Both the position numbers and the translations under genes were made by a program. A model generated the notes under the pieces. The model saw nothing but the letters and a program-made list of their open reading frames with translations. It had not been told where the DNA came from and made no database searches. This document shows, piece after piece, positions 6,196 to 33,309 of a stretch of DNA of 64,000 bases; position 1 is the first letter of the stretch; each line of letters opens with the position of its first letter. Location of the stretch: contig CAVOOG010000002.1 in NCBI GenBank assembly GCA_963697475.1, positions 3,038 to 67,037 of the forward strand, written 5' to 3'. The DNA is from an uncultured Actinomycetota bacterium (GTDB lineage Bacteria > Actinomycetota > Actinomycetes > Mycobacteriales > Mycobacteriaceae).

Positions 6196-9304
<3,109 letters not shown>

Positions 9305-9391
9305 CCCTGGTGAGTGGGCGAGTCTAGAGCGGGTAACGCGCAACTGATCGGCCGCCGTGTCCACTGTCTACAATTTGTCTACACTGGCTCC

Positions 9392-9625
9392 ATGGCAGCA
9401 GAAACCACAGCTGTCCGAGTCTGCCGTCCCGATTCTGAGCGGCTGCAGTCTCTAGCCAAGGCCCGTCAAACCGCCGTCATCGACGTCGTGCACGCAGCCA
9501 TCGACGCCTTGGAGAGGCAGGAATTCCTGCGGGGGCTCAATGGGGATTACCAGCGCCTGCGCAACGACCCCGAACTGTGGGAGCAGTACCTGGCCGAGCG
9601 TCATGAGTGGGACGCACTGGCTTGA
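9392..9625 (+). CDS. Putative RHH-type antitoxin
   Basis: 77 aa; TACACT 6 nt upstream of ATG; stop overlaps TTG of a mazF-like gene. Confidence 0.7.
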   Translation: MAAETTAVRVCRPDSERLQSLAKARQTAVIDVVHAAIDALERQEFLRGLNGDYQRLRNDPELWEQYLAERHEWDALA

Positions 9626-9710
9626 TCTGGCGGGGGGAGGTCTACCACGTCGACCTCGGCCAACCAGTCGGACACGAGCCAGCCTTTCGCCGCCCGGTGG
9701 CGGTCTCGCT
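9622..9710 (+). pseudogene. Truncated MazF/PemK toxin
   Basis: MIWRGEVYHVDLGQPVGHEPAFRRPVAVS then similarity stops just before the repeat at 9724. Confidence 0.75.
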
Positions 9711-9723
9711 CGGTCAACCCGAG

Positions 9724-9780
9724 AACAATTGGCGGGCAGTGCAATACGGCGTACTTTACTGGTAACCCGCCATATTCGAT
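9724..9780 (+). repeat. Dispersed repeat copy A (dif-site flanks lacking core)
   Basis: AACAATTGGCGGGCAGTGCAATACGGCGTACTTTACTG|GTAACCCGCCATATTCGAT aligns with 11651, 20685 and the reverse complement of 33487-33542. Confidence 0.7.
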
Positions 9781-9937
9781 TCCGCCGTATGGGGTCACGA
9801 CGGCGGCAGCGCCGCCACTTCGAGTGGCGTGTATTGCGGGTCGACAGTCGACGGTGGCGCTATCCGTTTGTCACCGTCGAACCGATGAGGGTGCAGTGGC
9901 CTTCAGCGGCGGGAGAACCAGGTCCGACACCTCTGTG

Positions 9938-10939
9938 TCAGCTCTGGGCGAGCAGCACGAACGTCAGGTAGGTCAGATATGCGGCGACCATGGCGCCGCC
10001 CTCGCCGCGGCTGATCCGTCGGCCCGACACGAAGATTGGGATGCAGACCAGCGCGACGGCCACCAGGATCGGGATATCTACCCGGACCAGGCTGGCGGGC
10101 ATTACCAAGCCGTCGGACGCGGCGATGCAGATGACACCGAGGATGAGCAGGACGTTGTAGATGCTGCTGCCGAGCAGGTTGCCGACCGCGATATCGCGGT
10201 TACCGCGCAGTGTGGACACCACCGTCGTCACCAGCTCCGGCACGGACGTGCCGATCGCCACCACCGTCAGTCCGATCAGCGCGTCGGAGACCCCGAAGCT
10301 GCGCGCCATGCCCACCGCGCCGTTGACCAGCCAGTCCGCACCGCTCACCACGAGGACGATACCGATCAGCATCATGCGCACATGCCACGCGGTCGGGCGG
10401 ATGCGCGCGGCGGTCTCGCCGGGCTCCTCGGATGCGTATTCCTCGTCGTACTCGTCTTCCTCGTCGTACTCACCGACGACGGCGTGTGATTCGCGGCGCG
10501 TCATCCGGATCAACGCGACGGTGTAGGCCACCGCACAGGTCACCAGGATGATGCCGTCGACCCGCGATAGCGTGCCGTCCAGCGACAACACCAGCATCAA
10601 CACCGCCGCGCCGGCCATCACCGGCAGCTCGAAACGCAGCGTCCGAGCCGCCATCGCGAGCGGCAGGATCAGCGCGCTCAGGCCGAGGATCAGCAGCAGA
10701 TTGACGATGTTGGTGCCGGTGAGATTGCCGACCGCCAGTGTCCCGCTGCCCTCGCGCGCGGAGACCACCCCGATGGCGAGTTCCGGCATGCTGGTGCCGA
10801 TGGACACCACGGTCAGGCCGATGACGATCGGGCTGATACCGAACCGAGCCGCGACTTCCGCGCCACCGCGGACCATCATGTCGGCCCCGAACACCAGAGC
10901 GGCCAGGCCCACCAGGAACCCGACCGCGTCCGTCAGCAT
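9938..10939 (-). CDS. Calcium/sodium antiporter (CaCA family, YrbG-like)
   Basis: Two alpha repeats GTSMPEL/GTSVPEL and GNLTGTN/GNLLGSS; about 10 hydrophobic segments. Confidence 0.9.
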   Translation of the reverse strand: MLTDAVGFLVGLAALVFGADMMVRGGAEVAARFGISPIVIGLTVVSIGTSMPELAIGVVSAREGSGTLAVGNLTGTNIVNLLLILGLSALILPLAMAARTLRFELPVMAGAAVLMLVLSLDGTLSRVDGIILVTCAVAYTVALIRMTRRESHAVVGEYDEEDEYDEEYASEEPGETAARIRPTAWHVRMMLIGIVLVVSGADWLVNGAVGMARSFGVSDALIGLTVVAIGTSVPELVTTVVSTLRGNRDIAVGNLLGSSIYNVLLILGVICIAASDGLVMPASLVRVDIPILVAVALVCIPIFVSGRRISRGEGGAMVAAYLTYLTFVLLAQS

Positions 10940-10998
10940 CGCGACGAGCCTATCGGCGACGAGTTCGCGAGCCACGAGCGGTCGGCGGTCCATACGAC

Positions 10999-11121
10999 AT
11001 GAGCAACGCTCTATGGCCCTTGGTGCACGCCGAGCGCGCCGCCGTGATCGCCGACCTCAGCGGTCTCGATGCCGAGCGGTGGAACGCCAAATCGCTGGGC
11101 GCCGGGTGGTCGGTGCACGAT
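10999..11121 (+). pseudogene. N-terminal remnant of a mycothiol-dependent maleylpyruvate isomerase-like (DinB-fold) protein
   Basis: Manual translation MSNALWPLVHAERAAVIADLSGLDAERWNAKSLGAGWSVHD. Confidence 0.6.
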
Positions 11122-11637
11122 CAGGGCCCCGGAAAGGTCGTTGGTGGAGTGCTGTGACCTGTGGGTTTGTGGCGGTGTGACCGGCGTGGCTGCTGTGGCG
11201 GGTGTGACCTGCGGGCTTGGATGGGAGGTATCTGTCCACGGGAACCGTGGAATGTTGCCGTCGAGCACGAGTGTCAGAATCCTGTTTCACTCCCGCCCTC
11301 CCCGAAACACCCTCCACAGCAACGAATTACGGTACAACAGATTGAGGTGATGGGTGATGGATGTGATGCACCCGTCGACAGCAACCCGATCAGCACCAAC
11401 TGCCGGCGCACCCTCGAACGCATCGTCGCCGACGTTGACCGTGATCAGGTCGTTGCGCACAAGACGGGTTGTGGGCGAACGGATTTCTTGGAAGTGCACC
11501 AGCGGACATGCTCGCACACCAGGGGATGCCCGCCAACTCGATCGAGACTTGCACGTCAGTCCGTCGACCGCCAGTTTGATTGCGACAACCGCCCAGTCCT
11601 AACTGAGACCGGACAGGTCGCTCGAAGCATCCATGAT

Positions 11638-13026
11638 TCATCTGATGAAAACGGCGTAGTTTGCTGGTAACACTGCATATTCAAGCTCTGCATAATCATT
11701 CGACCCGGTGTCCGAGCGACTCATCCCAGGATCGCCCGAGCTGCGCGCTCTGCGATCAACATTGACCGGCGCGTTGGTGTTACCGGAAGTGATGGTGGGC
11801 ATCGCCGACGCATCGGCCACTCGAAGAGCGGCGACGCGGTACACGCGACAGTCGGTGTCGAGCACCGTGGCGGTCGACCGTGGCAGGCCGCGTATGTCAA
11901 AGGCTCCCATCGCGCATGTGCCCACCGGATGAAAGATCGTTGTACCGAGTTCGCGGGCCGCGTTCTGCAGGTCTTCGTCGCTCACCAGTTGCGGGCCGGG
12001 AAGCATCTCTTCTGGGCAGTAGGGGGCCAGGGACGGCGCCGCCATGATGTGCCGGGTCATCCGGAGGCCGCGCACGGCCGCTTTAAGATCGGCGTCAGTG
12101 GACAGGTAATTGCAGGCGATCTTCGGGTAGGTCAGCGGATCTGCACTGGCTAGGCGTACATGGCCTCGGGAGCTGGGTCGCAGATTGCACACCGAGGGTG
12201 TGATCGCTCCGAAACGGTGCAGCGGTTCGCCGAACTTGGCCAACGACGAGGGCTGTACATGCCACTCCAAGTCGGGACTGGCCAGCGTGGAGTCGCTTTT
12301 GGCGAAAGCGCCCAGCGTGGAGGGCGGCATGGTCATGGGTCCTGTTCGCAGTAGCAGGTATTGAAGTCCCATGCCTGCACGGGTGATCCAATTGCGGTAC
12401 AGCGTGTTGACGGTCCGGGCGCCCTGCACCCGGTAGACCGTTCGCAGCTGCAGGTGGTCCTGGAGGTTTTCGCCCACTCCTGGAAGATCGACGGCCACCG
12501 GCACGTGATGCTGGGTGAGCAGCCCGGCTGGGCCCAGACCCGAGGCCTCCATGAGATGCGGTGACCCAATCGCTCCCGGCGCTCAGGATTACCTCCCTGC
12601 CGGCTTGGACATCGACGATTTGGCCATCTTTGAGCAGCCGCACACCGGTGGCACGGCGCTGAGCTGTGATCCAGGCACCGTGACGCTGATGGTCGTGGCC
12701 CATAGGTCGTAATCGGAGGCCTGTCCGCGCATATGGATCATGGCGTTGATTGAAGCGCTGCCGCCGATTACGCGGCCTCGCGCGTAGGGAATGCTGCGGC
12801 CCGCCAGACCTGGGTCAGCCTCGGTCGTGAAGCACCAGTCGGTGCGGGGGTTGGCGATTGTGTACAGGTAGCCCACCGGCACTTTGATCCAGAAGTGATT
12901 GTCTTTTCCGCCTGCCTCAATCAGGAGCACACGGTGATCAGGGTTGGCGCTGAGCCGGTTGGCGAGCAGGCAGCCCGCACTGCCTGCTCCCACGATGACG
13001 AAGTCGAATTCGGCGACGGGGCTCAT
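11638..13026 (-). pseudogene. GMC oxidoreductase (choline dehydrogenase-like) with internal deletion and frameshifts
   Basis: IVGAGSAG, RGRVIGGSASIN; VGENLQDH; FHPVGTC, ITSGNTNAP in different frames. Confidence 0.88.
11651..11696 (+). repeat. Dispersed repeat copy C (dif-site flanks lacking core)
   Basis: ACGGCGTAGTTTGCTG|GTAACACTGCATATTCAAGCTCTGCATA. Confidence 0.7.
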
Positions 13027-13323
13027 TTCCGGCATCGTTTCTCCATGGCGTCAGGTGCGTGTCTTAGTGCGCGATGACCGCCCGGCACGTGCGCGACCCG
13101 TGTGTGCTGTCGAAGTACACCGTAGTGACGTGATCGACAAGCTCACAACCATCAAGAGGTCGAGCTTCCATGCCCGAGTCGGTCGGCTTACAGCGGAGTA
13201 AGACGTCGACGTCAAGCAACGAGAATGGCATTCCTCGGCGTTGGCGGGCTGCTCTACGCCGGGGCGGCCCAGTTACTCGTCGCGTTGCAGCCCACGAAAA
13301 AAATTGGGTAGAGTGACGACGAT

Positions 13324-13785
13324 ATGGCTACAAAGAAGGCTGGTGGCGCCAAGAGTGTATCGAAGAAGGTGGCCGTCAGAGCTCCGGTGAAGAGGGCGCC
13401 CACCGCGAAGGCGGCCGTAGTCGGGACTGCGCAGAGGGGTCGGGTCGCCGCTGACGATCCCTTGTCTGAACAGCGCGTCCTGTACCTCGTCAACGTGTTC
13501 TCGCGTGCACAGCTGGCGAAGTTGATTGGCGTCAGCCCATCACAGACTTCCCGATGGGTATCAGGTGAAGAGCGTCCTGGCCCCGCCGCAGCTCCGGCGC
13601 TAATTGATCTAGAACATGTGTATTCGCGCGCGCGCTTGGTATGGGGTGGCGACTCGGCGCGTATCTGGATGGAAAGCGCTAACGCCTTCCTCGGGGGAGC
13701 CCGACCTCTTGATGTTCTAGTTACCGAAGGAGCCGCTCGGGTTCTTCAAACGCTCGACGCAGAGATGTGGGGCGGGGCGGCGTGA
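13324..13785 (+). CDS. Xre/MbcA/ParS-type antitoxin (HTH plus C-terminal toxin-binding domain)
   Basis: FSRAQLAKLIGVSPSQTSRW HTH; WMESANAFLGGARPLDVL C-terminal motif; directly upstream of RES gene. Confidence 0.8.
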   Translation: MATKKAGGAKSVSKKVAVRAPVKRAPTAKAAVVGTAQRGRVAADDPLSEQRVLYLVNVFSRAQLAKLIGVSPSQTSRWVSGEERPGPAAAPALIDLEHVYSRARLVWGGDSARIWMESANAFLGGARPLDVLVTEGAARVLQTLDAEMWGGAA

Positions 13786-14340
13786 GTGCTGGTATATCGC
13801 GTCTTTCCCTACCTTGAGACGGCTCCACTCGGCGAGCCAGGGCATCCGCTATATGAACACCGCCCGCAGCGCGGTGGCCGGGCTGATCACCCCGACTATT
13901 ACGTCTGGTATGTGGCCCGCCAATCCGAAGCCGCGTGCGGTGAAGCGTTCGGCAACCTGTCGCGCTGGATCGACTCGATGTTCGATTTTCCGGCAGTACC
14001 CGGTGCACGGAAGACGCTCGGGGTGTACGAACTGCCCGACGATCTGCGCATTTGCGACCTTGATGATCCGCACCGCCTAGCAGAGCTAGGACTTCGACCG
14101 ACACAGATCGTCACTCGCAACCTGGCAGTCACTTCGGAGTGGGCGCATCGGATCTGGTCTCAGAGTTCTCCTGCCATTGACGACCGAAAATGGCAGGCGG
14201 TGCAATGGTGGTCCTTCCATCGGCCAACTTGGACCGTCATCGCCAGTTGGGAACGGCCCAAGCTCGTCGAACTCGAACATCTGAACCTCGACCACCCAGC
14301 CGGTGTAGCGGCAGCTAAGGGCCTCAACCGGCCTCTATAG
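13786..14340 (+). CDS. RES domain toxin (putative NAD+-consuming)
   Basis: YRV...GGRADHP...WYVA...GEAFG; translationally coupled to antitoxin. Confidence 0.75.
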   Translation: MLVYRVFPYLETAPLGEPGHPLYEHRPQRGGRADHPDYYVWYVARQSEAACGEAFGNLSRWIDSMFDFPAVPGARKTLGVYELPDDLRICDLDDPHRLAELGLRPTQIVTRNLAVTSEWAHRIWSQSSPAIDDRKWQAVQWWSFHRPTWTVIASWERPKLVELEHLNLDHPAGVAAAKGLNRPL

Positions 14341-14534
14341 ACAATCTGGCTCCGGAAGCGGATCGGCGAGCTCCAGGCTTACGCGAACATTCGTCATCGG
14401 CAATGAAATCTGTTGGACCGCAAGGAAATACGCGGGCGAGGGTCGCTCGAATCATCCGTGACTCATCTGCACAGCCGGGCGGGACCGTCTCCGTCGACGT
14501 CCTCTGCCCCAACCAGTCAGAGGACTGAGAAGGC

Positions 14535-17060
14535 CTACAGATCGACCGGCATCGGGTCGACGTTCCAGATCTCGTCGCAGTACTCGGCGATCGCGCGATC
14601 CGACGAGAACTTCCCGCTGCGGGCAGCGTTGAGGATCGACATCCGTGACCAGGTATCGTCGTCCTGCCACGCTGCACTGACCTTCGCCTGGCAGTTCACG
14701 TAGGAGCGGTAGTCGGCCAGCACCAGGAACGGGTCGTGGTGAATGAGGTTGTCCACCACGGGACGCAGGATCTCGGTGTCGCCGTTCGTGAAAGCGCCAC
14801 CCAGGATCGGCTCGAGCACCTCGGCCAGCTCCGGGTCGCGCTCGATGTAGCTCGCCGGCCGGTACCCCTCGGCCTTGATCCGCTCCACTTCGTCGACGGT
14901 CAGCCCGAACAGGAAGAAGTTCTCCGCCCCTGCCTCTTCGCGGATCTCGACGTTCGCGCCGTCGAGGGTGCCGATGGTCAGGGCGCCGTTCATCATGAAC
15001 TTCATGTTGCCGGTGCCGGAGGCCTCCTTGCCGGCGGTGGAGATCTGCTCGGAGAGGTTGGCCGCCGGGTAGATCAGATGGGCGTTCTGCACGTTGAAGT
15101 TCGGCAGGAACACCACTTTCAAGAAGCGGTTGACGTCGGGGTCGTTGTTGACCGTTGCCCCGACGGCGGTGATAAGCTTGATGATCCGCTTGGCCATGAA
15201 GTAGCCCGGCGCCGCCTTGCCGCCGAAGATGAAGGCGCGCGGCGCGACGGCGAAACCGGGCTTCTGCTTGAGGCGGTTGTAGAGCGTGATGATGTGCAGG
15301 ACGTTGAGGTGCTGACGCTTGTACTCGTGAATCCGCTTGACCTGAATGTCGAACATCCAGGTGTGGTCCAATTCGATACCGGTGGTGGAGTGTACGAACT
15401 CGGCGAGCCGTTTTTTATTGGCGCGCTTGACTTCTCGCCAGCGCTGCCGGAAGGCGGGGTCTTCAACGAAGTCTTCGAGCCGGCGCAGCTGGTCGAGGTC
15501 GGTCAGCCAACCGTCACCGATGGTCTCGTCGAGCAGGCCGCGCAGTCCCGGGTTGGACAGGGCCAGGAAACGTCGTGGTGTCACGCCGTTGGTCACGTTG
15601 CCGAACCGCTCCGGCCACAGCTCGTAGAAGTCTTTGAGCACACTGGCTTTCAGCAGCTCCGAGTGCAGCGCGGCGACGCCGTTGACCGCGTGGCTGCCCA
15701 CTGTCGCCAGATGTGCCATCCGCACGCACTTTCCGTGCTCCTCGCCGATGAGCGACATCCGCGCGATGCGGTCCTCGTCGGCGGGGAACAGTGACCGCAC
15801 CTCGTCGAGGAAGCGGTCGTTGATCTCGTAGATGATCTCGAGATGCCGGGGCAGGGATTCCCCGAAGATGCCCAGTGACCAGGTCTCCAGAGCCTCGGGC
15901 AGCAGGGTGTGGTTGGTGTAGGCGAAGGTTTCCACGGTGAGGGCCCAGGCGTCGTCCCAGCTGATGTGGTGGTCGTCGACGAGCAGGCGCATCAGCTCGG
16001 CCACCGCGATCGACGGGTGGGTGTCGTTGAGCTGAATGGCCCACTTCTGCGGGAGCGCCGACAGCGGCAGCCCGACCCGCTCGGTGTGGATGCGCAGGAT
16101 GTCCTGCAGTGAGCACGACACGAAGAAGTACTGCTGTTGCAGCCGAAGCCGCTTGCCGGCTTCGGGTTCGTCGTTGGGGTAGAGCACCTTCGAGACCTTC
16201 TCGGCGACGACCTCCTCCTCGACGGCCTTGTAGAAGTCGCCGGTATTGAAGGCCTCCAGGGCGAAGGACTCGACGGAGCGGGCGCTCCAGAGCGTGAGCG
16301 TGTTGCAGGTGTTGACGCCGTATCCCTGGATCGGCGTGTCATAGGAGACGCCCTTGATCAGCTGCTGCGGCCTCCACCGCACGCGGTGGAGGCCGGCGAG
16401 GTCCTCGTACTGTTCGGTGTGCCCGCCCCAGTTGACGATGTAACTGGCGTCGGGCTTGTCGATCTCCCACGGGTTGCCCCGCACCAGCCAGTTGTCGGTC
16501 TTCTCGACCTGCCAACCGTTGTGGATCTCCTGGTCGAAAATCCCGAACTCGTAACGGATTCCGTAGCCGATGGACGGGCGCTCCAGGGTGGCCAGCGAAT
16601 CCAGGTAGCACGCCGCGAGCCGGCCCAAGCCGCCGTTGCCCAGTCCGGGCTCCTCTTCGCACGCCATGATCTCGTCGAGTTTCTGACCGAGTGCAGCCAG
16701 CGCCTCGTGGGCCTGCTCCTCGATTCCGAGGTTCAGCAGGTTGTTGCCGAGCTGGGGGCCCATCAGGAACTCCGCCGACAGGTAGCAGGTCACCTTGTTG
16801 GACAGATCGAGCCAGTCCTGGGTGGTGGCCATCCAGCGCTGCTGCATCCGGTCGCGCACGGCCAGGGCCAGCGCGCGGTAGTAGTGCTCGGCGGTCAGCG
16901 CGACGGCGGGCCGGGCGATCGAATAGGTGAGGTGGTCACTGATGGCGCGGCGCAGCGCGTCGGGCGACAGGCCGGTGCGGCTGTGCTCGTGAGGTGCGGG
17001 CGGTACGGCGGGATCGAAAGCTTCTGCGTTCCCGGGCGTGGTGCTCACCACATCGATCAT
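14535..17060 (-). CDS. glgP: Glycogen/alpha-glucan phosphorylase (GT35)
   Basis: LGNGGLGRLAAC, QLNDTHP, KRIHEYKRQ, EASGTGNMKF (PLP lysine), GTLDGANVE. Confidence 0.95.
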   Translation of the reverse strand: MIDVVSTTPGNAEAFDPAVPPAPHEHSRTGLSPDALRRAISDHLTYSIARPAVALTAEHYYRALALAVRDRMQQRWMATTQDWLDLSNKVTCYLSAEFLMGPQLGNNLLNLGIEEQAHEALAALGQKLDEIMACEEEPGLGNGGLGRLAACYLDSLATLERPSIGYGIRYEFGIFDQEIHNGWQVEKTDNWLVRGNPWEIDKPDASYIVNWGGHTEQYEDLAGLHRVRWRPQQLIKGVSYDTPIQGYGVNTCNTLTLWSARSVESFALEAFNTGDFYKAVEEEVVAEKVSKVLYPNDEPEAGKRLRLQQQYFFVSCSLQDILRIHTERVGLPLSALPQKWAIQLNDTHPSIAVAELMRLLVDDHHISWDDAWALTVETFAYTNHTLLPEALETWSLGIFGESLPRHLEIIYEINDRFLDEVRSLFPADEDRIARMSLIGEEHGKCVRMAHLATVGSHAVNGVAALHSELLKASVLKDFYELWPERFGNVTNGVTPRRFLALSNPGLRGLLDETIGDGWLTDLDQLRRLEDFVEDPAFRQRWREVKRANKKRLAEFVHSTTGIELDHTWMFDIQVKRIHEYKRQHLNVLHIITLYNRLKQKPGFAVAPRAFIFGGKAAPGYFMAKRIIKLITAVGATVNNDPDVNRFLKVVFLPNFNVQNAHLIYPAANLSEQISTAGKEASGTGNMKFMMNGALTIGTLDGANVEIREEAGAENFFLFGLTVDEVERIKAEGYRPASYIERDPELAEVLEPILGGAFTNGDTEILRPVVDNLIHHDPFLVLADYRSYVNCQAKVSAAWQDDDTWSRMSILNAARSGKFSSDRAIAEYCDEIWNVDPMPVDL

Positions 17061-17352
17061 TGCATGCTCCCTGCTTCTGGACAGCTGCTGAGGACGGCAG
17101 TGTGGCATTGCCGTGTTTCAGCCCGGTGAGCCCAGCGAGGCGCTCATGTGAACTATGGCCCATCGGCGTTCGGCCCGTTCGCGCTCGTCCTTCAGCCGCT
17201 CCTTGCTCCGCAACAGCCGCAGCAGCGTCACCAGGACAAGCCCACCGAGTCGGTGCCGCAGCCGGGAGCGATCCACAGTGGCGGCCGCCGCCGCCAGGGA
17301 CTGGGCCGCGACCGGTGTTGATTGACCGGCACGGGCGGTCGCGGTGCTTAGA

Positions 17353-18098
17353 CTGCGCCCATGTTGCATCCTGCAAGTTGGACTGGACTAGCGGGTGGGA
17401 GTCCCGCCCCGGTAGGCACCGGAGCGCCGGGTAGCAGGCCCGGGTTCGTCGTCGAGAGGCGGCGGGCTAAGCGGGGTGTCAAGAGCCTCTTTGGAGGGAG
17501 CAAGAGCGCGGGCCGTAGCGTCATCCGGCGCGAGTCCTGCAGCCTCGTCACAGTCACAATGGAGGAGCCGAGCCGCTCATGTCACGGCGAAGGTCTATGT
17601 TTGTCGAGCCCTGGTCCGGGGTCAGCTCGGCGGGTCCTTCCGGGGTACGGGGAGCGGCACGTGTGCACAGTTCAGTCGGGAACAGGAGAGGCCCGTCTGC
17701 CCCTTCTGCGTCGGGCAAAGACCGGGGGTATGGGCCGATGGTGAAAATCCTTGGAGGGCAGCGGGAGTCTGAGGGGGTCGTAGTACCGCTGGTCGGCGTC
17801 GCGGGCACTCCGAACGGCGGGGTGATCTCGCCGTTGTTGGCCAGCGTCTCCCTGCATGTGCTCGATACTGAACTTTCCCGCGGGAATGTGCGTGCCGGAC
17901 GAGCCGATCAGCGGAGCGAACAGTGGTTTAACGGGCACGGCCTGCACCGGCTTCGTGGCACCATCCGCTACCCAAAGGCTGCGTAACCATGTCAAGAAGA
18001 TCATCGGTAAGCCGTGTGCGGGAAAACCGCACGCAGGGATTGAAAGGGGGATGGGGAAACAGACCCGCACTGCGGGCACTGCGCCCCTGACTACCAAT
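17353..18098 (+). mobile_element. Group II intron with internally deleted intron-encoded protein
   Basis: 5' CTGCGCCC (GTGCG-like); domain V AAGCCGTGTGCGGGAAAACCGCACGCAGGGATT at 18009-18041; 3' end CTACCAAT; RT remnant GTPNGGVISPLLAS..LHVLD joined to a C-terminal remnant HRLRGTIRYPKAA*. Confidence 0.85.
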
Positions 18099-19953
18099 GG
18101 CTCAGGGCCACGACGACGTAGCGGACGGCCTGCTCCGCATCGAGGACTGCCTGGATTCCGAGGGCGGTGTGGTCCTGCCCGCGGGCGTGACGCTGATCTC
18201 GCTGATCGAGCGCAATGTCGCCAATGTCGGTGATTCCGTTGCCTATCGATACCTCGACTACAGCCATTGCGCCGAGGGACAGGTCGCCGAGCTGACCTGG
18301 ACGCAGTTGGGCCGCCGGCTGCTGGCGGTCGGCGCGCACATCCAGAAAGCCGCGTCCTGGGGCGATCGGGTGGCCATCCTCGCGCCGCAGGGACTCGAGT
18401 ACATCACGGGCTTCTTCGCCGCGATCAAGGCGGGCACCATCGCGGTGCCGCTGTTCGCCCCGGAACTGCCCGGGCACGCCGAGCGCCTGGACATCGCGCT
18501 CGCAGACGCCGCTCCCCGCGTGGTCCTCACCACCGCGGCGGCGCACGAATCGGTGCGCGGCTTCCTCAGCCGGCTGCCGTCCGCGCGGCGACCGGAGGTG
18601 ATCGTGATCGACGAGATCCCGGACTCGGCGGCGGAGGATTTCGCAGCCACCGTCATCAATGTCGACGACATCTCACACCTTCAGTACACCTCGGGTTCGA
18701 CCCACCCGCCGGTGGGCGTCGAAATCACCCATCGGGCCGTCGGCACGAACCTCATCCAGATGATCCTGTCGATCGACCTGTTGGACCGAAACACCCACGG
18801 CGTCAGTTGGTTACCGCTCTACCACGACATGGGCCTGTCGATGATCGGGTTTCCCACCGTCTACGGCGGGCATTCCACCCTGCTGTCACCGACGGCGTTC
18901 ATCCGGCGGCCGCAACGGTGGATCCAGGCCATGTCGGCCGGATCCCGGGAAGGCCACGTGGTCACTGCCGCACCGAATTTCGCCTACGAATGGACCGCGC
19001 AGCGCGGCCTGCCGGATCCGGGCGAGGACATCGACCTGAGCAACGTGGTGCTGATCATCGGTTCCGAGCCGGTCAGCATCGACGCCATCCGCACGTTCAA
19101 CGTCGCGTTCGCGCCACATGGATTGCCGGCCACTGCGTTCAAGCCATCCTACGGGATCGCCGAGGGGACGCTGTTCGTCTCGACCATCGCACCGGACGCC
19201 ACGGCCACCGTCGTCCATCTCGACGGTGCCCGGCTGGCCGCCGGGCAGGCTGTACCGGTGGTGGCTGACCACCCCGGCGCCGTGGCGCAGGTATCCTGCG
19301 GCCAGGTGGCCCGGAGCCAATGGGCGGTGATGGTCGATCCGGGCAACTGTACGGAAGTGCCAGATTCCCAGGTGGGCGAAATCTGGCTACACGGTGAGAA
19401 CATCGGCCGCGGGTACTGGGGTCAGCCCGAGATGAGCCGAACGACGTTCGGCGCCAAGCTCGTACAGCGTCTCGAGGTGGGTAGCCATGCCGACGGCACA
19501 CCGGACTCGGCCACCTGGCTGCGCACCGGCGACCTCGGCTTCTATCGTGACGGCGAACTGTATGTCACCGGCCGCATCGCGGATCTGGTCACCGTGGATG
19601 GCCGCACCTTCTACCCCCAGGACATCGAGGCGACGGCGGCGGAGGCGTCGCCGATCGTGCGGCGCGGATACGTCGCGGCGTTCTGCGCACCCGCGGGGGA
19701 GTTACCGGGATCGCAGACCGACGACGCCGCACCGGTGCTGGTGATCATCGCCGAACGTGCGGCCGGCACCAGCCGCACCGACCCGCAGGTGGCCCTCGAC
19801 GCGATCCGCGCCGCGGTCCTGGCCAAGCACGGCGTCGAGGTGGCCCAGGCGCACTTGGTGCCGGCCGGGGCGATCCCGCGCACCACGAGCGGGAAGCTGG
19901 CTCGACGCGCATGCCGTACGGAATACCTCGACGGCAGCCTGAAGGTACGTTGA
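18097..19953 (+). CDS. fadD31: Fatty acyl-AMP ligase, FadD31-like
   Basis: GLLRIEDCLD, HLQYTSGST, LIQMILSIDLL, WLPLYHDMGLSMIGFP, PRTTSGKLARRAC closely resemble mycobacterial FadD31 as recalled. Confidence 0.88.
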   Translation: MAQGHDDVADGLLRIEDCLDSEGGVVLPAGVTLISLIERNVANVGDSVAYRYLDYSHCAEGQVAELTWTQLGRRLLAVGAHIQKAASWGDRVAILAPQGLEYITGFFAAIKAGTIAVPLFAPELPGHAERLDIALADAAPRVVLTTAAAHESVRGFLSRLPSARRPEVIVIDEIPDSAAEDFAATVINVDDISHLQYTSGSTHPPVGVEITHRAVGTNLIQMILSIDLLDRNTHGVSWLPLYHDMGLSMIGFPTVYGGHSTLLSPTAFIRRPQRWIQAMSAGSREGHVVTAAPNFAYEWTAQRGLPDPGEDIDLSNVVLIIGSEPVSIDAIRTFNVAFAPHGLPATAFKPSYGIAEGTLFVSTIAPDATATVVHLDGARLAAGQAVPVVADHPGAVAQVSCGQVARSQWAVMVDPGNCTEVPDSQVGEIWLHGENIGRGYWGQPEMSRTTFGAKLVQRLEVGSHADGTPDSATWLRTGDLGFYRDGELYVTGRIADLVTVDGRTFYPQDIEATAAEASPIVRRGYVAAFCAPAGELPGSQTDDAAPVLVIIAERAAGTSRTDPQVALDAIRAAVLAKHGVEVAQAHLVPAGAIPRTTSGKLARRACRTEYLDGSLKVR

Positions 19954-20114
19954 CCCATGCCCCTTCGTGCCCGATCTGGGTGCCCGTGTTCTGTTCGCTG
20001 GAGGGCCACGCCGGGTTGTTTGTCGGCGGACGCCGCTGTTGTTGGGTTGCCGCAGCTGTGCGCACGCTTACGTGGAACCGGTAATCGTCTTACAAAACGT
20101 CGTACACTGTGGCT

Positions 20115-20348
20115 ATGGCTGACACGATTACCTTCCGGCCCGACGAAGACACATCGAAGGCGCTGGAGGTCTTGACTAGAGACGGTACGGCTGTGTCGGC
20201 GGCCGTTCGGTCTGCTCTTATCGATGCCGCCCGACGGAAGGCCGGCGCGGCGATTCGTGCCGAGGCGGAGGAGCTCGCCGAAGACGAGTCAGATCGCGCT
20301 GAGGCCATGCAGGTGCTGCGCGATATGGAGACACTGCGTGCGTGGTGA
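20115..20348 (+). CDS. RHH-type antitoxin (MazE-like)
   Basis: TITFRPDEDTSKAL...VSAAVRSAL; TACACT 6 nt upstream; overlaps toxin start. Confidence 0.8.
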   Translation: MADTITFRPDEDTSKALEVLTRDGTAVSAAVRSALIDAARRKAGAAIRAEAEELAEDESDRAEAMQVLRDMETLRAW

Positions 20349-20649
20349 GGTCTTTCGGTTGCATGCCGCGAGGGGGAGCCGCGGTCACGAGCAGTCCGGT
20401 TCCCGATACGCCGTAGTCGTCCAGTCAGATCAACTGCCGCTGTCGACCTGGCTGGTTGCGCCGACATCCACGTCGGCTCGTGCTGCCAGCTTCCGACCCG
20501 AGGTCGAAGTCGGCGGCCTAAAGACTCGAGTGCTTGCTGAGCAGACCGCAGCGGTCGACCCGGGCCGGCTCGGCAAGAGCGTCGGGTTCCTAAGTTTCGA
20601 CGAATTGCGTCGCGTTGATGCGGCCCTGCGTGTCGTCCTCGATCTATGA
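20338..20649 (+). CDS. mazF: MazF/PemK endoribonuclease toxin
   Basis: MRGEVFRL...RGHEQSGSRYAVVVQ...VAPTSTS...LAEQTAAVD. Confidence 0.88.
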   Translation: MRGEVFRLHAARGSRGHEQSGSRYAVVVQSDQLPLSTWLVAPTSTSARAASFRPEVEVGGLKTRVLAEQTAAVDPGRLGKSVGFLSFDELRRVDAALRVVLDL

Positions 20650-20684
20650 GCGCTGCGGCGCCATCATCACCATGGGACGACGAA

Positions 20685-20748
20685 AACAATTGGCAAGCAG
20701 TGCATTACGGTGTACTGGTAACCCTGCATATTCAATTGCTGCATATTG
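20685..20748 (+). repeat. Dispersed repeat copy B (dif-site flanks lacking core)
   Basis: AACAATTGGCAAGCAGTGCATTACGGTGTACTG|GTAACCCTGCATATTCAATTGCTGCATATT. Confidence 0.7.
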
Positions 20749-20795
20749 GGCGCGGATGTAGTGACCAGGTTTTGCTTAGGATGGAATGCCGCCGA

Positions 20796-22043
20796 TCAGC
20801 TCCGGCCTGACGCTTCCATGGCGGTTTTCACCGCGTCGTAAACATCGACCTGCTCGACGCGAACGGTGAATGGCTCGCCCTCGAAGACCGTTCCGTAGCC
20901 GAGTGCGGTCACGGTGTAGGTGACGGTCACCTCGTCCAAATTCAGGTTTCGCAGCACCAAGACGACGTCGTCTGCGTTGTGACGCCAGGGCGGGTGTGGT
21001 CGCAATTCGGCGAGCGTGATGGTCACCTCGAGGTCACCGTCATCGTTGTCTTCCCACTCGACGGGGTAGTCAGCGGGCAACCTTAGCTTTAAGTTCTGCA
21101 CGGCTAAGCTGCCGAACGGGTGCTGCGCCGGAAGCCAATCGGGATCCTTCAGCTTCTCCCATTCGAAAATGCCGATGTCTTCGAACTCAAGGCCGCCCGC
21201 GCCGTGGAAGGTCAAGATCACCTGCACGTTGCTGAGGAACGACTGCGCTTGGTTGGTGATGCGAAACCGCAAGGCGGGCCAGCAGATTGCCGCCAGGTAG
21301 TCTTGGCAGGCCGCCCACCGTCTTTCCAGGTCGCGTCGCAGGGTGGCTACTTGCCCAGCGATCTCTTCGTCCGAAATTGGTCGGGCCAGCTCGTCCGAGG
21401 CCTCGTAGCCCATTGGCCGCATTACAGACGGCATCACCGGATTCGGTGGGTTAGCTCGTAGTTCTTCGTTGCGCCGGCGCAACGACTCCTCCTCTATTTC
21501 CACCACGGTGGCCAACATTTCATCACCGTGAAGGAAGGTGCGCGCGTGCCCAATTACCTCGGCAGTAACCAGGATTGGCGGCGGTCCCGCCGGGATGCCC
21601 AGAAACTGCTCTCGAACCCCCGCCATGTGTGGGCGGTCGAGAACGGTTGTGACGCGTTCCAGGTGGTACAACTCGACTTTGGTATCGCCGCCGACCTTGC
21701 CAAGTGCCTCGCGTTCGGCGAGGCGTAGCTCCTGGTTGGTCACGAAGGCGACGCCAACTGGCGCAGGCGTTTGTGATTTGGCCTTCTCCACGTCGGACGT
21801 GAGTTTGTCGGTGATCCCGCTGATGCTCTGCTGACCGCGGGGGAAGTAAACAGCCATGACCCACGGCTCGCCGTTCTTCTGAATTAGTGCGTCGACGCCA
21901 CCGTCCTTGCCGCCCAACGGATGGGCCGGATCGATGCTTTCGAAACTCTCCTCGTCGAGGATGAGCGCAGCCATTCGCTCGGACGGCGTCTGGCCCATCG
22001 TCCACTCCAACAACAGGTGCCAAGTCTCGTCGAATCGCCTCAC
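20796..22043 (-). CDS. Hypothetical protein with N-terminal restriction-endonuclease-like domain
   Basis: SERMAALIL...IDPAHPLGGKDGGVDAL...FVTNQ resembles Mrr/PD-(D/E)XK-like domains; C-terminal part unassigned and beta-rich. Confidence 0.55.
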   Translation of the reverse strand: MRRFDETWHLLLEWTMGQTPSERMAALILDEESFESIDPAHPLGGKDGGVDALIQKNGEPWVMAVYFPRGQQSISGITDKLTSDVEKAKSQTPAPVGVAFVTNQELRLAEREALGKVGGDTKVELYHLERVTTVLDRPHMAGVREQFLGIPAGPPPILVTAEVIGHARTFLHGDEMLATVVEIEEESLRRRNEELRANPPNPVMPSVMRPMGYEASDELARPISDEEIAGQVATLRRDLERRWAACQDYLAAICWPALRFRITNQAQSFLSNVQVILTFHGAGGLEFEDIGIFEWEKLKDPDWLPAQHPFGSLAVQNLKLRLPADYPVEWEDNDDGDLEVTITLAELRPHPPWRHNADDVVLVLRNLNLDEVTVTYTVTALGYGTVFEGEPFTVRVEQVDVYDAVKTAMEASGRS

Positions 22044-22073
22044 GCGCTGCCTGTCATTGTTGTCCGCACCATC

Positions 22074-24218
22074 TCAGTCCTCGGCGGCCTCGTCCACGAG
22101 AGTTGTGCACGCCGCTATGACGAATTCGGGCACGGCATCGAACTCTTTTGGATTCAGTTGCATTACGTACTCGTTCTCGATGTGGTATGTCTCGTTAACG
22201 AATTTAGTGAAAACTTCGTCGCCCTTGAAAGATTCAGGGTTCAGCGCCAGCAGCATTCGAAATAGTTGCACCTTCTCGTAACCGACGTCTGTTGCCTTGA
22301 AGCGAGCCTTGAGCGCCGCCTGATTCTTCGATTCTGCCACTAGCTGGCCGTAGTGGAAGTCAGGAATATATTTCCTGACTTCAGCTGTAGCGGCCGCCAT
22401 ATCGGCTTCGTTGAGGGGAATTTGTTCGCCTGAGGCGAGCTTCCGTGTTGGCATATTCCGAGCGTGGAGCAGGCTTGAAAGAAGTTCGTACTCGTCGCCT
22501 AGTGTGCCGTGGACTTCGAAACGACGTCGCAAATAAATGCATTGGATAAGCTGGTCTGTTGAAGACGAAATATTATCATCACAGACCTGGGAGAAAGTCT
22601 TGATGTCCGTCGCGGTGATGGGCTTTTCGACAAGCTGTCCTGATCGCCCGCTGAGGAAGTGAACCACTGGGTTGGTGGCAGCGAACTGCCCCGTGGTCCG
22701 CACGATATCGATCGCTGGTTCGATGTCGTGTGTCAAGAGAAGTGAGGTTGTGTCACGCAAGCTGTTCGTTCCGTGGAATAGCTGATGGAGGATTGCGAAC
22801 TTCTTCGTCTTGTCGAAACTGGATACCGGATCATCGAGCACTACGAGGTGCGGCTTCTTGTGCTGCACATCGTGCATGAATAAAACTAGTGCGAAAGCGT
22901 TCTTCTCTCCGTAACTCAGGTGGCTCGCAGCAGCCTCGATATGCCCGGGAGCATCTTCGTGTTCCAGCAACATCCGATAAGCGCCCTCGTTCGGCTCTAT
23001 TCGCACTGTGTAGCGATATCCTGCCGACTTCAAGAATGCATTGATATCGTCCTGGTTACGTTTAATAAGCCTCGCTACTCGCGTTTTCTGCTCGCCAATC
23101 CGCCGCCGAATGTCGTCGATCTGCGCGGCCACTTCGTCTAACTTTTCGTTGATCAGGCGCACGACGGACTGAGTCGCTTCTGAGCCGAGGGCGGGAAGGT
23201 AGTTGAGGTCGATCTTTAGTTCTCCGAGGACTGTTGCGATGTTCGCCTCGTCCCTGAGCGCATGGAAGGACAAGCCTTTGACCGCCGAGAGTTTCGTCAG
23301 CAAGGTTTCGACTTGGCTGCGGAGCGTGACGAGGAACGATTCTTGCTCAGGTGACAAGCCGCCGATTGAAGTAGTCAGGTCTTCGAGCTTCTGGAGATCA
23401 GAAGGCTCGAAGTAGCGTCCAAGCCTATCGATCACGTTCCGCAGCAAGCTCATGTTCTTGACTGCGGCGGACTCGTACTCTTCCGAGACCTTCGTTGCGG
23501 TTTGCTTGTCAACGCTCGGAACTGAGCAGAACGGGCAGTTATCCGAAAGCTGAAGAAATTCCTTGCCTTTGGACTGCCAGGTAATCCAAGCGGCCGGATT
23601 GTCGCTGTGAAGAAATCTCTCATACCCGCGTAGCTGCTCAGGGATGTTCTTAAGTTTCCCGCCCACGCTGAGGGCTTTGTAGCCTTTGCTTGTTTTGGCA
23701 ACGGCGCCACCCTTAGTGACGTTGAACGCGTCCCTGAGTTCATTGAAGCTCTCGAGCGCCTGGTTGAACTCTGCTTCGTCATCGAATGTTTGCTTCAGCG
23801 ATTGGAATTTTGACTCGATCTGAGCTAGGCCCTCTTGGAAATCCGCTGTGTTGATGAATATTTCGAAGCTATTCTTCAGGACTTCGTCCCGCTGAAACAC
23901 GAACTGCGACACATAATCATCGTTGAAGGTCATAACACTCGTGATACCGTCGGCTCCTTCGATAGAAGGGCGCGGGGCAGTCTTCAGCGACTTGTGTTTG
24001 AACGGCGTTAGCTCTTCTAGTTGTTCGTTGCCCACGGCCCGTAGCTCCAGCGCGCGAGCGATCGTGCTCTTGCCAATACCGTTGGGACCGTATTTGATGT
24101 TGAGCGAACCGTGTCGCAACGAGATTCTTCCTTCGGTAATGCTGTTGCAGTGCCGAATCGTGATATGAAGCTCCATTGAGGCGGTGGAAGAGGTCGCCTG
24201 CTCGTCAATTTGAGTCAT
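22074..24218 (-). CDS. RloC-like (AAA_13-type) ABC/SMC ATPase with Zn hook
   Basis: Walker A GPNGIGKS, CPFC hook inside coiled coil, LSYGEK signature, LVVLDDPVSSFD Walker B/D-loop, LLTHD H-switch. Confidence 0.75.
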   Translation of the reverse strand: MTQIDEQATSSTASMELHITIRHCNSITEGRISLRHGSLNIKYGPNGIGKSTIARALELRAVGNEQLEELTPFKHKSLKTAPRPSIEGADGITSVMTFNDDYVSQFVFQRDEVLKNSFEIFINTADFQEGLAQIESKFQSLKQTFDDEAEFNQALESFNELRDAFNVTKGGAVAKTSKGYKALSVGGKLKNIPEQLRGYERFLHSDNPAAWITWQSKGKEFLQLSDNCPFCSVPSVDKQTATKVSEEYESAAVKNMSLLRNVIDRLGRYFEPSDLQKLEDLTTSIGGLSPEQESFLVTLRSQVETLLTKLSAVKGLSFHALRDEANIATVLGELKIDLNYLPALGSEATQSVVRLINEKLDEVAAQIDDIRRRIGEQKTRVARLIKRNQDDINAFLKSAGYRYTVRIEPNEGAYRMLLEHEDAPGHIEAAASHLSYGEKNAFALVLFMHDVQHKKPHLVVLDDPVSSFDKTKKFAILHQLFHGTNSLRDTTSLLLTHDIEPAIDIVRTTGQFAATNPVVHFLSGRSGQLVEKPITATDIKTFSQVCDDNISSSTDQLIQCIYLRRRFEVHGTLGDEYELLSSLLHARNMPTRKLASGEQIPLNEADMAAATAEVRKYIPDFHYGQLVAESKNQAALKARFKATDVGYEKVQLFRMLLALNPESFKGDEVFTKFVNETYHIENEYVMQLNPKEFDAVPEFVIAACTTLVDEAAED

Positions 24219-24285
24219 TACCTACCCTTATCTGATTCGGGATGCGACGTCGCAAATTTCCCAGCACCTTCTGCGGGTCCCGAAA

Positions 24286-30190: not shown

Positions 30191-30335
30191 CGTGATACTC
30201 CTTCCGGCACAAGCGCAATCGCATGAAACACCTGTGCTGATCGTGCAGCATGTCGCTCCCTGGTTGTGACGCGAGAACAGCCCGCTTTTGTCTCACGTGA
30301 TTCGCTTCGCCCTCGGCTACGTCGTCCGCTGGCAT

Positions 30336-31844: not shown

Positions 31845-32151
31845 GTTTGGGGCGGATGGCCTTGTTCAGTTCGACGACGTTCTCTCGGCCGGCACTAGCG
31901 GCTTTCTTGCGGGCATCCGCAGCGGTAACCGTGACGAGATCGTCTGGGCCGCAGTCAAAGATGTCGCAGAGCGCGGCGATGAGCTTCAGAGAAACTCGTT
32001 CGGGTCGTTGGTGGACGAGCCGGTAGACCTGTGGCCGTGACAGCGTGATCCCGCGTTCGTTCAGCCGCGGCATGAGATCCGTGCTGTTGTGCATCTGGTT
32101 GCTGGCCATAAGTTCGGCGAGGCGCCATTGGTAATCGACATCGCGTTTCAT
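31816..32151 (-). CDS. Xre/Cro-C1 type HTH regulator
   Basis: WRLAELMA...LSRPQVYRLV...PERVSLKLIAALCDIFDCGPDDL. Confidence 0.85.
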   Translation of the reverse strand: MKRDVDYQWRLAELMASNQMHNSTDLMPRLNERGITLSRPQVYRLVHQRPERVSLKLIAALCDIFDCGPDDLVTVTAADARKKAASAGRENVVELNKAIRPKRARILSDDD

Positions 32152-33257: not shown

Positions 33258-33280
33258 CCGAAACTCCCGCCATCTGGTAT

Positions 33281-33309
33281 CAACAGATGAATCAATGATT
33301 CATCTGTTG
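33281..33309. promoter_or_regulatory. Perfect 14-bp inverted repeat upstream of the integrase (putative operator)
   Basis: CAACAGATGAATCA-A-TGATTCATCTGTTG; 19-bp part (33293-33311) recurs at 33471-33489. Confidence 0.6.

Follow-up and report, generated by a model that had tools for sequence, protein, structure and literature searches.

The window analysed here, a 64-kb stretch of contig CAVOOG010000002.1 (positions 3,038 to 67,037) from an uncultured member of the Mycobacteriaceae, is a high-G+C mycobacterial chromosome segment that contains the chromosomal recombination site dif and three further sites, A, C and B, which resemble the two flanks of dif. With a probability of about 0.68, we interpret A, C and B as attL-type joints of mobile units that were inserted in series and with specificity for site and orientation, each between the XerD arm of dif and the unit that had preceded it. 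Each joint is composed of a left part, U, and a right part, M, and is written here as U/M, with a slash marking the joint. The units share a common anatomy and pair at their own two ends, they occupy one side of dif in one orientation, they are shuffled as cassettes between loci, and the last of them is present or absent in related strains exactly at the joint.

Structure of the joints and of dif

The initial annotation described A, C and B as sites that carry both flanks of a dif-like site and lack its 22-bp core. The sequences quoted for the four sites are exact on re-reading, in their letters as well as in their coordinates (A, 9747-9776; C, 11652-11681; B, 20708-20732; dif region, minus strand, 33487-33542), and the left flanks of A and C are identical at 13 of 15 positions, as claimed. 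The three sites are copies of one repeat of 50-80 nt (nhmmer E-values of 2e-23, 5e-18 and 2e-21 for A, C and B) with the consensus TACTGGTAACCC[TG/GC]CATATTCGATTCC[TG/GC]C[A/G]TATTCC, and an nhmmer search of the whole window yielded no copies beyond these. The resemblance of the dif flanks was evaluated with position matrices built from A, B and C only, with a gap free to vary between 0 and 40 nt and with 100 Markov-simulated windows as the control. With a gap of 24, the dif locus reaches 29.0 bits, as compared with 11.4 bits for the runner-up place in the window, and the per-window maxima of the simulations have a mean of 12.3, a standard deviation of 2.8 and a top value of 22.1. Since the dif score exceeds that of every simulated window, the likeness of both its flanks to A, B and C is not due to chance, and this part of the initial annotation is confirmed.

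The joints, the units between them and the dif region are composed as follows.

9365-9760, plus strand: small cassette ending in U_A; its U part is 9712-9760, type 1, GAGAACAATTGGCGGGCAGTGCAATACGGCGTACTTTACT (U-only hidden Markov model, E = 2.7e-6)
9761-9792, plus strand: M_A, GGTAACCCGCCATATTCGATTCCGCCGTATGG (M-only hidden Markov model, E = 8e-10); joint A lies between 9760 and 9761
9761-11665, plus strand: unit A-to-C, which carries chaA and ends in U_C (Pfam, U-only model and motif search)
11619-11665, plus strand: U_C, type 2, with TGATTCATCTG at 11634
11666-11700, plus strand: M_C, GGTAACACTGCATATTCAAGCTCTGCATAATCATT (M-only model, E = 2.6e-5); joint C lies between 11665 and 11666
11666-20716, plus strand: C-to-B stretch, with a GMC-oxidoreductase pseudogene, Xre-RES, glgP, an intron fragment, fadD and mazEF; it ends in U_B, 20673-20716
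20717-20754, plus strand: M_B, GGTAACCCTGCATATTCAATTGCTGCATATTGGGCGCG (M-only model, E = 2e-9); joint B lies between 20716 and 20717
20717-33506, plus strand: last, dif-proximal unit, 12,790 bp of low G+C (composition, Pfam, PADLOC)
33464-33506, plus strand: U_dif, ...ATGATTCATCTGTTGCAATATGCAGTGGTTTACT, the right end of the last unit, adjoining the XerD arm (U-only model)
33504-33531, minus strand: dif, ACTGCCGATAATCTACATTATGTCAAGT, in the order XerC arm, central region, XerD arm
33528-33580, minus strand: inverted U-like relic on the XerC side, ...GCGAGTCCTTGCATCTGATGCAACTCGCCGTAGTTTACTG (U-only model match 33557-33528)

U starts with a variable palindrome, which is followed by AATAYGSMG and then by NNNTTTACT; the end of U is TTTACT. 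M is about 35 nt long and reads GGTAACCC[TG/GC]CATATTCGATTCC..., that is, GGTAACC, a 9-mer, CGATTC and a second 9-mer, in this order. Profiles of 175 U-M and 32 U-dif sequences from the genomes compared agree from -15 to +1 (A.AYGS.G...TTTACT) and part at +2, where the former continue with GGTAACC and the latter with TGACATAA. Therefore, each joint is U/M and the final one is U/dif. In the window, the last U indeed meets the XerD arm directly (TTTACT/TGACATAA), and the XerD-side left flank of dif belongs to the same family as the sequence left of the conserved part of the repeat. The same profiles place the break at ...TTTACT/GGTAAC, one base leftward of the CTG/GTAA position originally proposed.

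The two halves were also modelled separately, with the U-only and M-only models trained on other genomes and the window excluded. The M-only model matches just 9761-9792, 11666-11700 and 20717-20754, and finds nothing at dif. The matches of the U-only model comprise the left half of each of the three joints, a solo copy (14396-14433) and, in opposite orientations, the two flanks of dif. The onset of M is an inverted copy of the end of U over about 17 nt (GTAACC-CTGCATATT as compared with AATATGCAG-TGGTTTAC), and this is the sole reason why M resembles the far flank of dif. Consequently, dif seems to hold both flanks because M starts with the inverted U end and because the XerC side of dif carries an inverted U-like relic. 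The reverse complement of U_dif corresponds to what had been called the right flank, and the relic to what had been called the left flank. The occurrence of the relic is explained by a mirror-image integrase family that occupies the XerC side in other genomes. The reading of M itself as a degenerate dif was considered and rejected: about 12 of 20 positions agree by eye, and M lacks the inner CATAA of the XerD arm.

When as many as 3 mismatches in 24 nt, or 4 in the 20 arm positions, are allowed, dif is the sole dif-like site in the 64 kb of the window. It agrees with the dif of 27 other loci with 0-2 arm mismatches. The 22-bp core of the initial annotation thus lies inside a real dif, but it is not the whole site, as the canonical dif comprises 28 bp. 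On the XerC side, dif carries conserved chromosomal sequence; on the XerD side, the flank family of U_dif stands beside dif in 27 other genomes as well. dif also forms the centre of a 130-nt imperfect palindrome (folding z-score of -3.4). A contig of the same species, L134, which encodes an identical CapA-like protein, stops 3 nt past dif; the array beside dif probably breaks short-read assemblies.

The ends of a unit are imperfect inverted repeats of about 17 bp, and M has one additional direct copy of the 9-mer, a second repeat that has no counterpart at dif. In the last unit, U_dif and M_B form the terminal inverted repeat. Across the loci compared, the complementarity of an M to the next U is higher than to a random U (Mann-Whitney p = 9e-5) and higher than to the adjacent U that it touches (p = 3e-4), and the adjacent U has no advantage over a random one (p = 0.7). 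The end types, TG or GC, follow the same trend, with an odds ratio of 10.5 (p = 0.005) between M and the next U and of 2.0 (p = 0.26) between M and the adjacent U. M and U of one unit agree in end type in all five units that bear an integrase, including the sole GC-type unit, which is on a plasmid; in the window, unit A-to-C is of the GC type at both ends (CGCC and ACGGCG). Since M pairs with the next U and not with the one that it touches, we conclude that M belongs to the unit on its right.

These results bear directly on the origin proposed by the initial annotation, according to which A, C and B descend from dif or pdif sites by precise removal of the 22-bp core, either once with subsequent copying of the scar or repeatedly. 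The resemblance of A and C to both dif flanks beyond chance is in keeping with this explanation, and so is the location of the sites at module boundaries near toxin-antitoxin genes, which was correctly noted: B follows MazF, C lies at the 3' end of the GMC-oxidoreductase pseudogene, and A lies at the 3' end of chaA. However, the M-only model misses both dif flanks, which are U-like and inverted, M extends over about 35 nt with a second repeat absent at dif, and M pairs with the next U rather than with the touching one. The joints moreover differ in U type and in cargo, which argues against one scar copied several times, and a metagenome contig with the empty site, described below, shows a unit inserted between U_B and dif rather than any loss of a core. 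We therefore consider core removal very improbable. What stands of the "disarmed pdif module boundaries" is that the sites are module boundaries. The search for dif-like sites in the window found no Xer-binding arms at A, B or C, and since such arms are absent there, the sites fall outside the definition of pdif modules.

Single-strand folding of the sites against shuffled sequences gives z-scores of -2.69 for A, 0.39 for C and 1.62 for B. A search of the whole window against Rfam at the gathering threshold returned a group II intron fragment only and nothing at the sites, and no tRNA or tmRNA gene was found in the window.

Position beside dif, cassette shuffling and an empty site

To place the joints in other genomes, we scanned for the M pattern TRCTGGTAACNCNNCATATTC with one genome per species and 8 kb per locus; as the pattern is strict, the sample is an ascertained one. 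The pattern occurs in at least 119 loci, nearly all of them from Mycobacterium, Mycolicibacterium, Gordonia, Dietzia, Nocardia and unnamed Actinomycetota. The joint model finds 196 copies in the listed loci, up to 5 per 8 kb and spaced by 0.4-3 kb, and all copies of a locus lie on the same strand. A canonical dif lies inside 27 of the 119 listed 8-kb loci, as compared with roughly 0.2 expected for one dif per ~6 Mb (an assumed size). In 27 of these 27 loci dif is downstream of the joints and on the opposite strand, so that the joints face its XerD side, and the window is alike. The link between the sites and dif that the initial annotation had drawn is thus borne out across genomes. Among viral contigs, the M pattern gave 5 matches, all of them chance matches of low G+C.

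Clustering of the open reading frames across the loci revealed mazEF, vapC, GMC-oxidoreductase and SDR as recurrent cargo families, and no universal recombinase among the recurrent frames. The first open reading frame 3' of M, called mechanically, is noisy at this G+C content, and no conserved neighbour gene emerged from it. Many of the cargo genes 3' of the joints are toxin-antitoxin pairs with palindromic operators of their own. This last observation, along with the operator-like occurrence of the 9-mer three times per joint, would suit a regulatory or structural repeat (a toxin-antitoxin operator or promoter, an element like repetitive extragenic palindromes or miniature inverted-repeat transposable elements, or a small RNA), for which the nearness to dif would be incidental. 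However, a fixed side and orientation to dif in 27 of 27 loci is not what such a repeat predicts, the cargo next to the joints is unrelated and in part encoded on the opposite strand, no Rfam family matches, C and B show no excess of folding energy, and the presence/absence polymorphism falls exactly at the joint. A regulatory repeat hence seems hardly tenable.

The units occur as interchangeable cassettes. The cassette left of A (9365-9712) is found in at least 9 other loci with 82-94% identity and at other array positions: in locus L100 it is the unit that adjoins dif, and in L099 it is placed two joints ahead of dif. The mazEF cassette to the left of B is found again in at least 12 loci, among them L100, where the A-type cassette follows it immediately. 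The unit to the right of C, with the GMC oxidoreductase, is present in 11 loci and stands behind a different U type in L042. Altogether, these three units are found in 9-14 other loci, with differing neighbours and array positions.

Direct comparison of occupied and empty states was provided by three metagenome runs with related strains (X1, X2 and X3), of which assembled contigs, rather than raw reads, were aligned to the window. A contig of X3 fuses 20708 to 33499, skipping 12,790 bp with an ambiguity of 3 nt. Because U_B sits directly on dif in this contig and the skip equals the length of the last unit, we regard the contig as the exact empty site of that unit. The sequence expected for an empty site is ...CATTACGGT(G/T)TACT/TGACATAATG..., and (T)TACT is common to attL and attR. 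The depth over the island is near zero in X2 and X3, with flank depths of 51/46 and 9.6/7.3, respectively, and amounts to about 60% of the flanks in X1. Contigs in all three runs follow U_B/M up to 20747 and then enter other cargo, and in X2 the same dif carries a diverged integrase element. Over 8000-20700, joints A and C included, the window is colinear with X2 and X3. Since A and C are colinear and the last unit is polymorphic, the variable position is the dif-proximal one, as predicted by serial insertion at dif.

Candidate recombinases, proposed integration and relation to known systems

The last unit encodes two proteins with recombinase folds, separated by a helix-turn-helix (HTH) protein, and this core is followed towards dif by a palindrome.

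30336-31844, minus strand: second recombinase-fold protein, 502 amino acids; N-terminal CxxC pairs resembling a zinc ribbon, then a tyrosine-recombinase fold
31816-32151, minus strand: HTH_26 (Cro/C1-type) protein, 111 amino acids (Pfam), always between the two recombinase-fold genes
32148-33257, minus strand: Xer-like "simple" tyrosine integrase, 369 amino acids (Pfam PF00589)
33282-33308: perfect 27-bp palindrome, AACAGATGAATCA/ATGATTCATCTGTT, about 25 nt upstream of the integrase start

The integrase has its closest relative, by protein search, in a Mycolicibacterium, and its homologues, with 63-95% identity, extend across Actinobacteria. The residues R194, H301-x-x-R304, H327 and Y336 are invariant among them. 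The nearest solved structures are XerA, XerD and IntI4. The scores against the equivalog models of XerD and XerC are far below their cut-offs (TIGR02225, 83 with a cut-off of 330; TIGR02224, 83 with a cut-off of 335), and so are those against the integron-integrase models (TIGR02249, 47.5 bits with a cut-off of 265; NF011946, 31.4 with a cut-off of 435). The integrase is hence Xer-like in architecture only and not XerC or XerD proper. Its start lies 250-270 nt from the XerD arm in the window and in L057, L126 (the circular plasmid p20KCMC460_01), L128 (Dietzia), L129 (a metagenome), L132/L133 (Mycolicibacterium) and L137/L138 (Mycobacteroides abscessus). The initial annotation was right in linking the sites to this recombinase. 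The L057 integrase is 89% identical to that of the window, and that of p20KCMC460_01, which has its own dif-like site, 71%. In L136, a contig reached via a Mycobacterium marseillense protein, dif is just upstream of the integrase, whose call looks truncated.

The order of integrase, HTH_26 protein and a protein of ~500 amino acids is constant in L128, L129, L130-L133 and L136-L138, and this core set stands beside dif in at least 7 contexts besides the window, one of them a plasmid. The cargo beside the constant core varies: a type IIG system in the window, Hachiman in L132, and other defence-like genes in L136 and L137. The 27-bp palindrome, which consists of two inverted copies of TGATTCATCT, is located at the same place in L057, L126, L128, L129, L132 and L137, and U contains a further copy of this motif. 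It shares the TGATTCATCTG motif, enriched in the window, with the type-2 U.

The 502-amino-acid protein has no match in Pfam, NCBIfam or PADLOC, and a profile search of PDB sequences was empty. Its AlphaFold2 model (pLDDT 84) resembles XerA, XerH, IntI4, lambda Int and Cre in Foldseek (E-values of 2e-5 to 1e-3), and its alignment with the integrase family by hhalign is colinear and not significant (E = 0.16). By a low-confidence alignment, the protein appears to lack the first catalytic arginine, and it may be a non-catalytic partner. Its homologues carry the label "recombinase XerD" at NCBI.

Several related elements were encountered along with these. A second, mirror-image integrase family stands on the XerC side in L009, L041 and L137/L138 (6320-8307), with ~40% identity to the integrase of the window in L009 and L041; in M. 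abscessus, Jongsikchunia and others, elements thus seem to land on both sides of dif. Pseudarthrobacter L130/L131, one contig of 4.95 Mb, has two identical integrase-HTH elements with metal-resistance-like cargo, which adjoin two different dif-like sequences (GCCGATAAG-NNN-CCATATGTCGT), so that either pseudo-dif sites are used or the genome has two such sites. L128 and L129 contain near-identical minimal elements of 6.2 kb (integrase, HTH protein and proteins of 504 and 914 amino acids) beside different dif sites. Their U/dif pentamers are swapped (CTTGACT/TTACATAA in the one and CTTTACT/TGACATAA in the other), which may mark the register of the crossover.

Based on these data, we propose the following course of integration. 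A unit would circularise by joining its own U to its own M, which would generate a lox-like palindromic attP; for the last unit, the expected circle joint of 33506 to 20717 would read ...GCAGTGGTTTACT/GGTAACCCTGCATATT.... The Xer-like integrase of the element would recombine this attP with an attB composed of the resident last U, TTTACT and the XerD arm of dif, with the crossover presumably within or beside TTTACT. The 502-amino-acid protein and the HTH protein could aid in targeting or control. The incoming unit would set a new U at dif, so that the target would be regenerated and the array would grow dif-proximally, and older joints such as A, C and B would be left behind as displaced, fossil attL sites. 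Small cassettes that have no integrase, such as those with toxin-antitoxin genes, would either be moved in trans or be relics. The suggestion of the initial annotation that the sites might be accessory or arm sites of the recombinase came nearer to this mechanism, in that the joints resemble attL- or attP-type sites of that recombinase family.

A number of points weigh against this reading. The XerD arm, as the arm of attB (TGACATAATG), and the corresponding arm of attP (GGTAACCCTG) are alike at about 4 of 10 positions, and attL in the window (GGTGTACT) is one base apart from the empty site or attR (GGTTTACT) within the presumed crossover. No circular form or back-joint (attP) was seen in the assembled metagenome contigs. 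The integrase is absent from most cassettes and from most of the 8-kb loci, and its action in trans on integrase-less cassettes is an assumption. A hairpin substrate of the attC or CTX type, which would provide another form of attP, was not adopted, as C and B fold no better than shuffles. Furthermore, 92 of the 119 listed loci have no dif within their 8 kb, the strict-pattern scan that gave the at least 119 loci is an ascertained sample, and on plasmid L126 one M lies past dif, on the XerC side.

Alternatively, the host XerC and XerD might insert the units, as for integrative mobile elements exploiting Xer (IMEX), perhaps via a folded single-stranded U/M hairpin as attP as in CTX phage, with the element's own recombinase accessory or otherwise employed. 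In favour of this, the association with dif is absolute (27/27), the U/M joint is palindromic, most cassettes have no recombinase of their own, and there are precedents both for elements that use Xer (PMC9765430) and for an XerC-like enzyme of an element that acts with host XerD (PMC11014353). However, the break is displaced from the central region, where XerC and XerD cut, to the outer edge of the XerD arm, no Xer arm is retained at the joints, M agrees with dif only to the limited extent given above, folding of C and B is no better than that of shuffles, and an integrase with intact catalytic residues stands beside the joint in at least 8 contexts. Insertion by the host enzymes is therefore unlikely in our estimate.

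Targeted transposition is another mechanism by which units could arrive at one fixed place, with transposon-like units bounded by terminal inverted repeats, duplicating TTTACT and steered to the dif flank like ISAjo2 and the IS1202 family. It would be consistent with the imperfect inverted-repeat ends and their additional internal copy of the binding motif, with TTTACT on both sides of each unit, and with the oriented insertion beside a Xer site that is known for the IS1202 family (PMC10132070). However, the arrays have no recurrent DDE or HUH transposase, only unrelated IS3 copies, the conserved core proteins have tyrosine-recombinase folds, and the ends are not TGT...ACA. We regard this mechanism as quite improbable.

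Integration by the element's own recombinase thus remains the preferred reading, and the arrays can be compared with known systems on this basis. IMEX, which include the CTX, TLC and VGJ phages, the gonococcal genetic island and Legionella LME-1, build up in tandem at dif (PMC9765430), and are similar in that the newest element is at the functional dif and dif is preserved. They differ in that their attP is dif-like, the crossover by host XerC/XerD is in the central region and the flanking sites are dif-like, whereas here U-M and U-dif diverge at the outer edge of the XerD arm, the joints are free of Xer arms, and the last unit and its relatives encode a recombinase pair of their own, with a predicted intact tyrosine integrase beside the joint. 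ISAjo2-type elements of the IS1202 family, termed "pdif/dif site hunters", insert 5 bp from the XerC arm in Acinetobacter (PMC10132070), likewise with a single orientation and a short, constant spacing to a Xer-binding arm, on chromosomes as well as plasmids. They are, however, insertion sequences of 1.5 kb with a TnsB-like DDE transposase and a 5-bp duplication, whereas the present units, found in Actinobacteria, have 0.4-13 kb, form arrays, abut the XerD arm and encode tyrosine-recombinase folds; no TnsB-like DDE transposase is among the recurrent open reading frames, and the ends are GGTAACC and ...TTTACT.

The pdif modules of Acinetobacter are also small, shuffled cargo modules with toxin-antitoxin or resistance genes between boundaries that resemble recombination sites. 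Unlike A, B and C, they are delimited by real 28-bp sites, XerC/D and XerD/C in alternation, whereas there is one dif-like site per 64 kb here and all joints of a locus have the same direction. Integrons resemble the arrays in their head-to-tail order in one orientation, in the imperfect palindromes at the joints, in growth at one privileged end and in a Xer-related recombinase, IntI4 being near in structure. The signature RYYYAAC/GTTRRRY of attC boxes is nevertheless missing, the integrase falls outside the IntI models and is within the last unit instead of beyond attI, and the anchor is dif. In tandem island accretion, at tRNA or tmRNA genes or as staphylococcal cassette chromosome (SCC) elements at rlmH, each arrival regenerates the att site, which leads to composite arrays with an att joint repeated between the elements, and elements without a recombinase are moved in trans. 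The present units have the features of such integrase islands, namely an integrase at one end by the att site, a short shared core (with the one-base difference just upstream) and a precise empty site, and differ from them in that the target is a dif flank rather than the 3' end of a gene, the att site is lox-like and palindromic and composed of both ends of the element, and a Xer-like integrase is accompanied by a second recombinase-fold protein. Finally, the XerC-like recombinase associated with Tn6022 acts with host XerD at a hybrid dif-like site of normal dif geometry (PMC11014353), and is comparable as a Xer-like enzyme that is encoded by an element and whose site borrows a host Xer half-site. 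Here, XerD cannot be the catalytic partner in the usual geometry, because the XerD arm faces away from the break. A "Myc" subgroup of tyrosine recombinases of unknown function has been defined in actinobacteria (10.1101/542381).

In searches of the literature on dif and Mycobacterium islands or integrases, on IMEX in Actinobacteria or Mycobacterium and on defence hotspots at dif, and for the motif itself, we came across no description of dif-adjacent unit arrays in Mycobacteriales and no paper in which the motif is printed. The phenomenon is a widespread form of site-specific integrative elements and cassette arrays. dif is among the most conserved and indispensable short sequences of bacterial chromosomes, and the elements known to land there are, to our knowledge, mainly those that borrow XerC/XerD, joined in Acinetobacter by one family of insertion sequences. 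We tentatively extend the interpretation, with somewhat less than even confidence, to an integron-like capture platform at dif in Mycobacteriales and probably other Actinobacteria, on chromosomes as well as large plasmids. In this platform, the XerD arm would be recognised by a non-catalytic recombinase-fold partner with a zinc ribbon, and this partner and the Xer-derived integrase would together integrate or release whatever DNA has U and M ends, and thereby build and reshuffle toxin-antitoxin and defence arrays at the terminus, with dimer resolution undisturbed. If this holds, the outer edge of dif is a growing stack of exchangeable units in many Actinobacteria, among them Mycobacterium, Mycolicibacterium, Mycobacteroides abscessus, Gordonia, Dietzia, Nocardia and Rhodococcus (the last by protein names only), which would account for the location and the chromosome-plasmid traffic of many mycobacterial toxin-antitoxin and defence systems. 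U/M would then be a simple signature for the automatic delimitation of units, and the new recombinase pair would offer a natural, conserved safe-harbour target for mycobacterial genetic tools. It would also become testable how a Xer-derived enzyme acts beside a Xer site and leaves that site unbroken.

Other features of the window

According to Pfam, the gene order at the start of the array is fadD, an antigen-85-type esterase, the small cassette, joint A, chaA and joint C; from C to dif it continues with a split GMC oxidoreductase, Xre-RES, glgP, the group II intron fragment, fadD, mazEF, joint B, the 12.8-kb low-G+C block and dif. chaA, which encodes a Na/Ca exchanger, is located at 9938-10993 on the minus strand. 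The cargo of the last unit comprises a PDC-S06-type ATPase, a T5orf172 protein, a DEAD helicase and a type IIG (MmeI-like) restriction-modification enzyme, next to the core of second recombinase-fold protein, HTH protein and integrase. A plasmid origin of the region was considered and rejected, as megablast gave no plasmid match except for glgP.

The C-to-B stretch is probably older and made of several units with decayed joints. One such joint is probably represented by the following sequence, which stands 3' of the RES toxin gene.

14396-14433 and 14441-14469, plus strand: solo U, followed by a type-2 U fragment (GGTCGCTCGAATCATCCGTGACTCATCTG) (U-only model, E = 0.004; repeat family D10), with no M after it

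A motif of the TGATTCATCTG type with 1 mismatch lies at 14459, within the fragment. In the same stretch, the GMC oxidoreductase (11638-13035, minus strand) is split into two open reading frames, and base 12575 is absent in the related strains of the three metagenomes; the split marks a frameshift pseudogene or else results from an error in sequencing the window. The group II intron fragment, domains D1-D4, is at 17389-17523 on the plus strand (RF02003, 81.9 bits), and the metagenome relatives have indels or alternative joints at ~17362-17567. Two paralogues of a fadD-type acyl-AMP ligase, at 6196-8070 (minus strand) and 18097-19953 (plus strand), are inverted to each other with about 70% nucleotide identity and bracket the older part of the array.

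Beyond dif, the window contains a 352-bp perfect inverted repeat (50040-50391 and 55051-55402) and a 300-bp perfect direct repeat (55442-55741 and 60480-60779), which are probably copies of insertion sequences or a recent duplication. Tandem repeats are present as an 18-bp unit in at least 3 copies (63171-63234), a 24-nt unit in 2 copies, gaagggactaatgaccctagcttg (43950-43995), and a 17-nt unit in 2 copies, cacaagaggaaaacaga (44058-44090).

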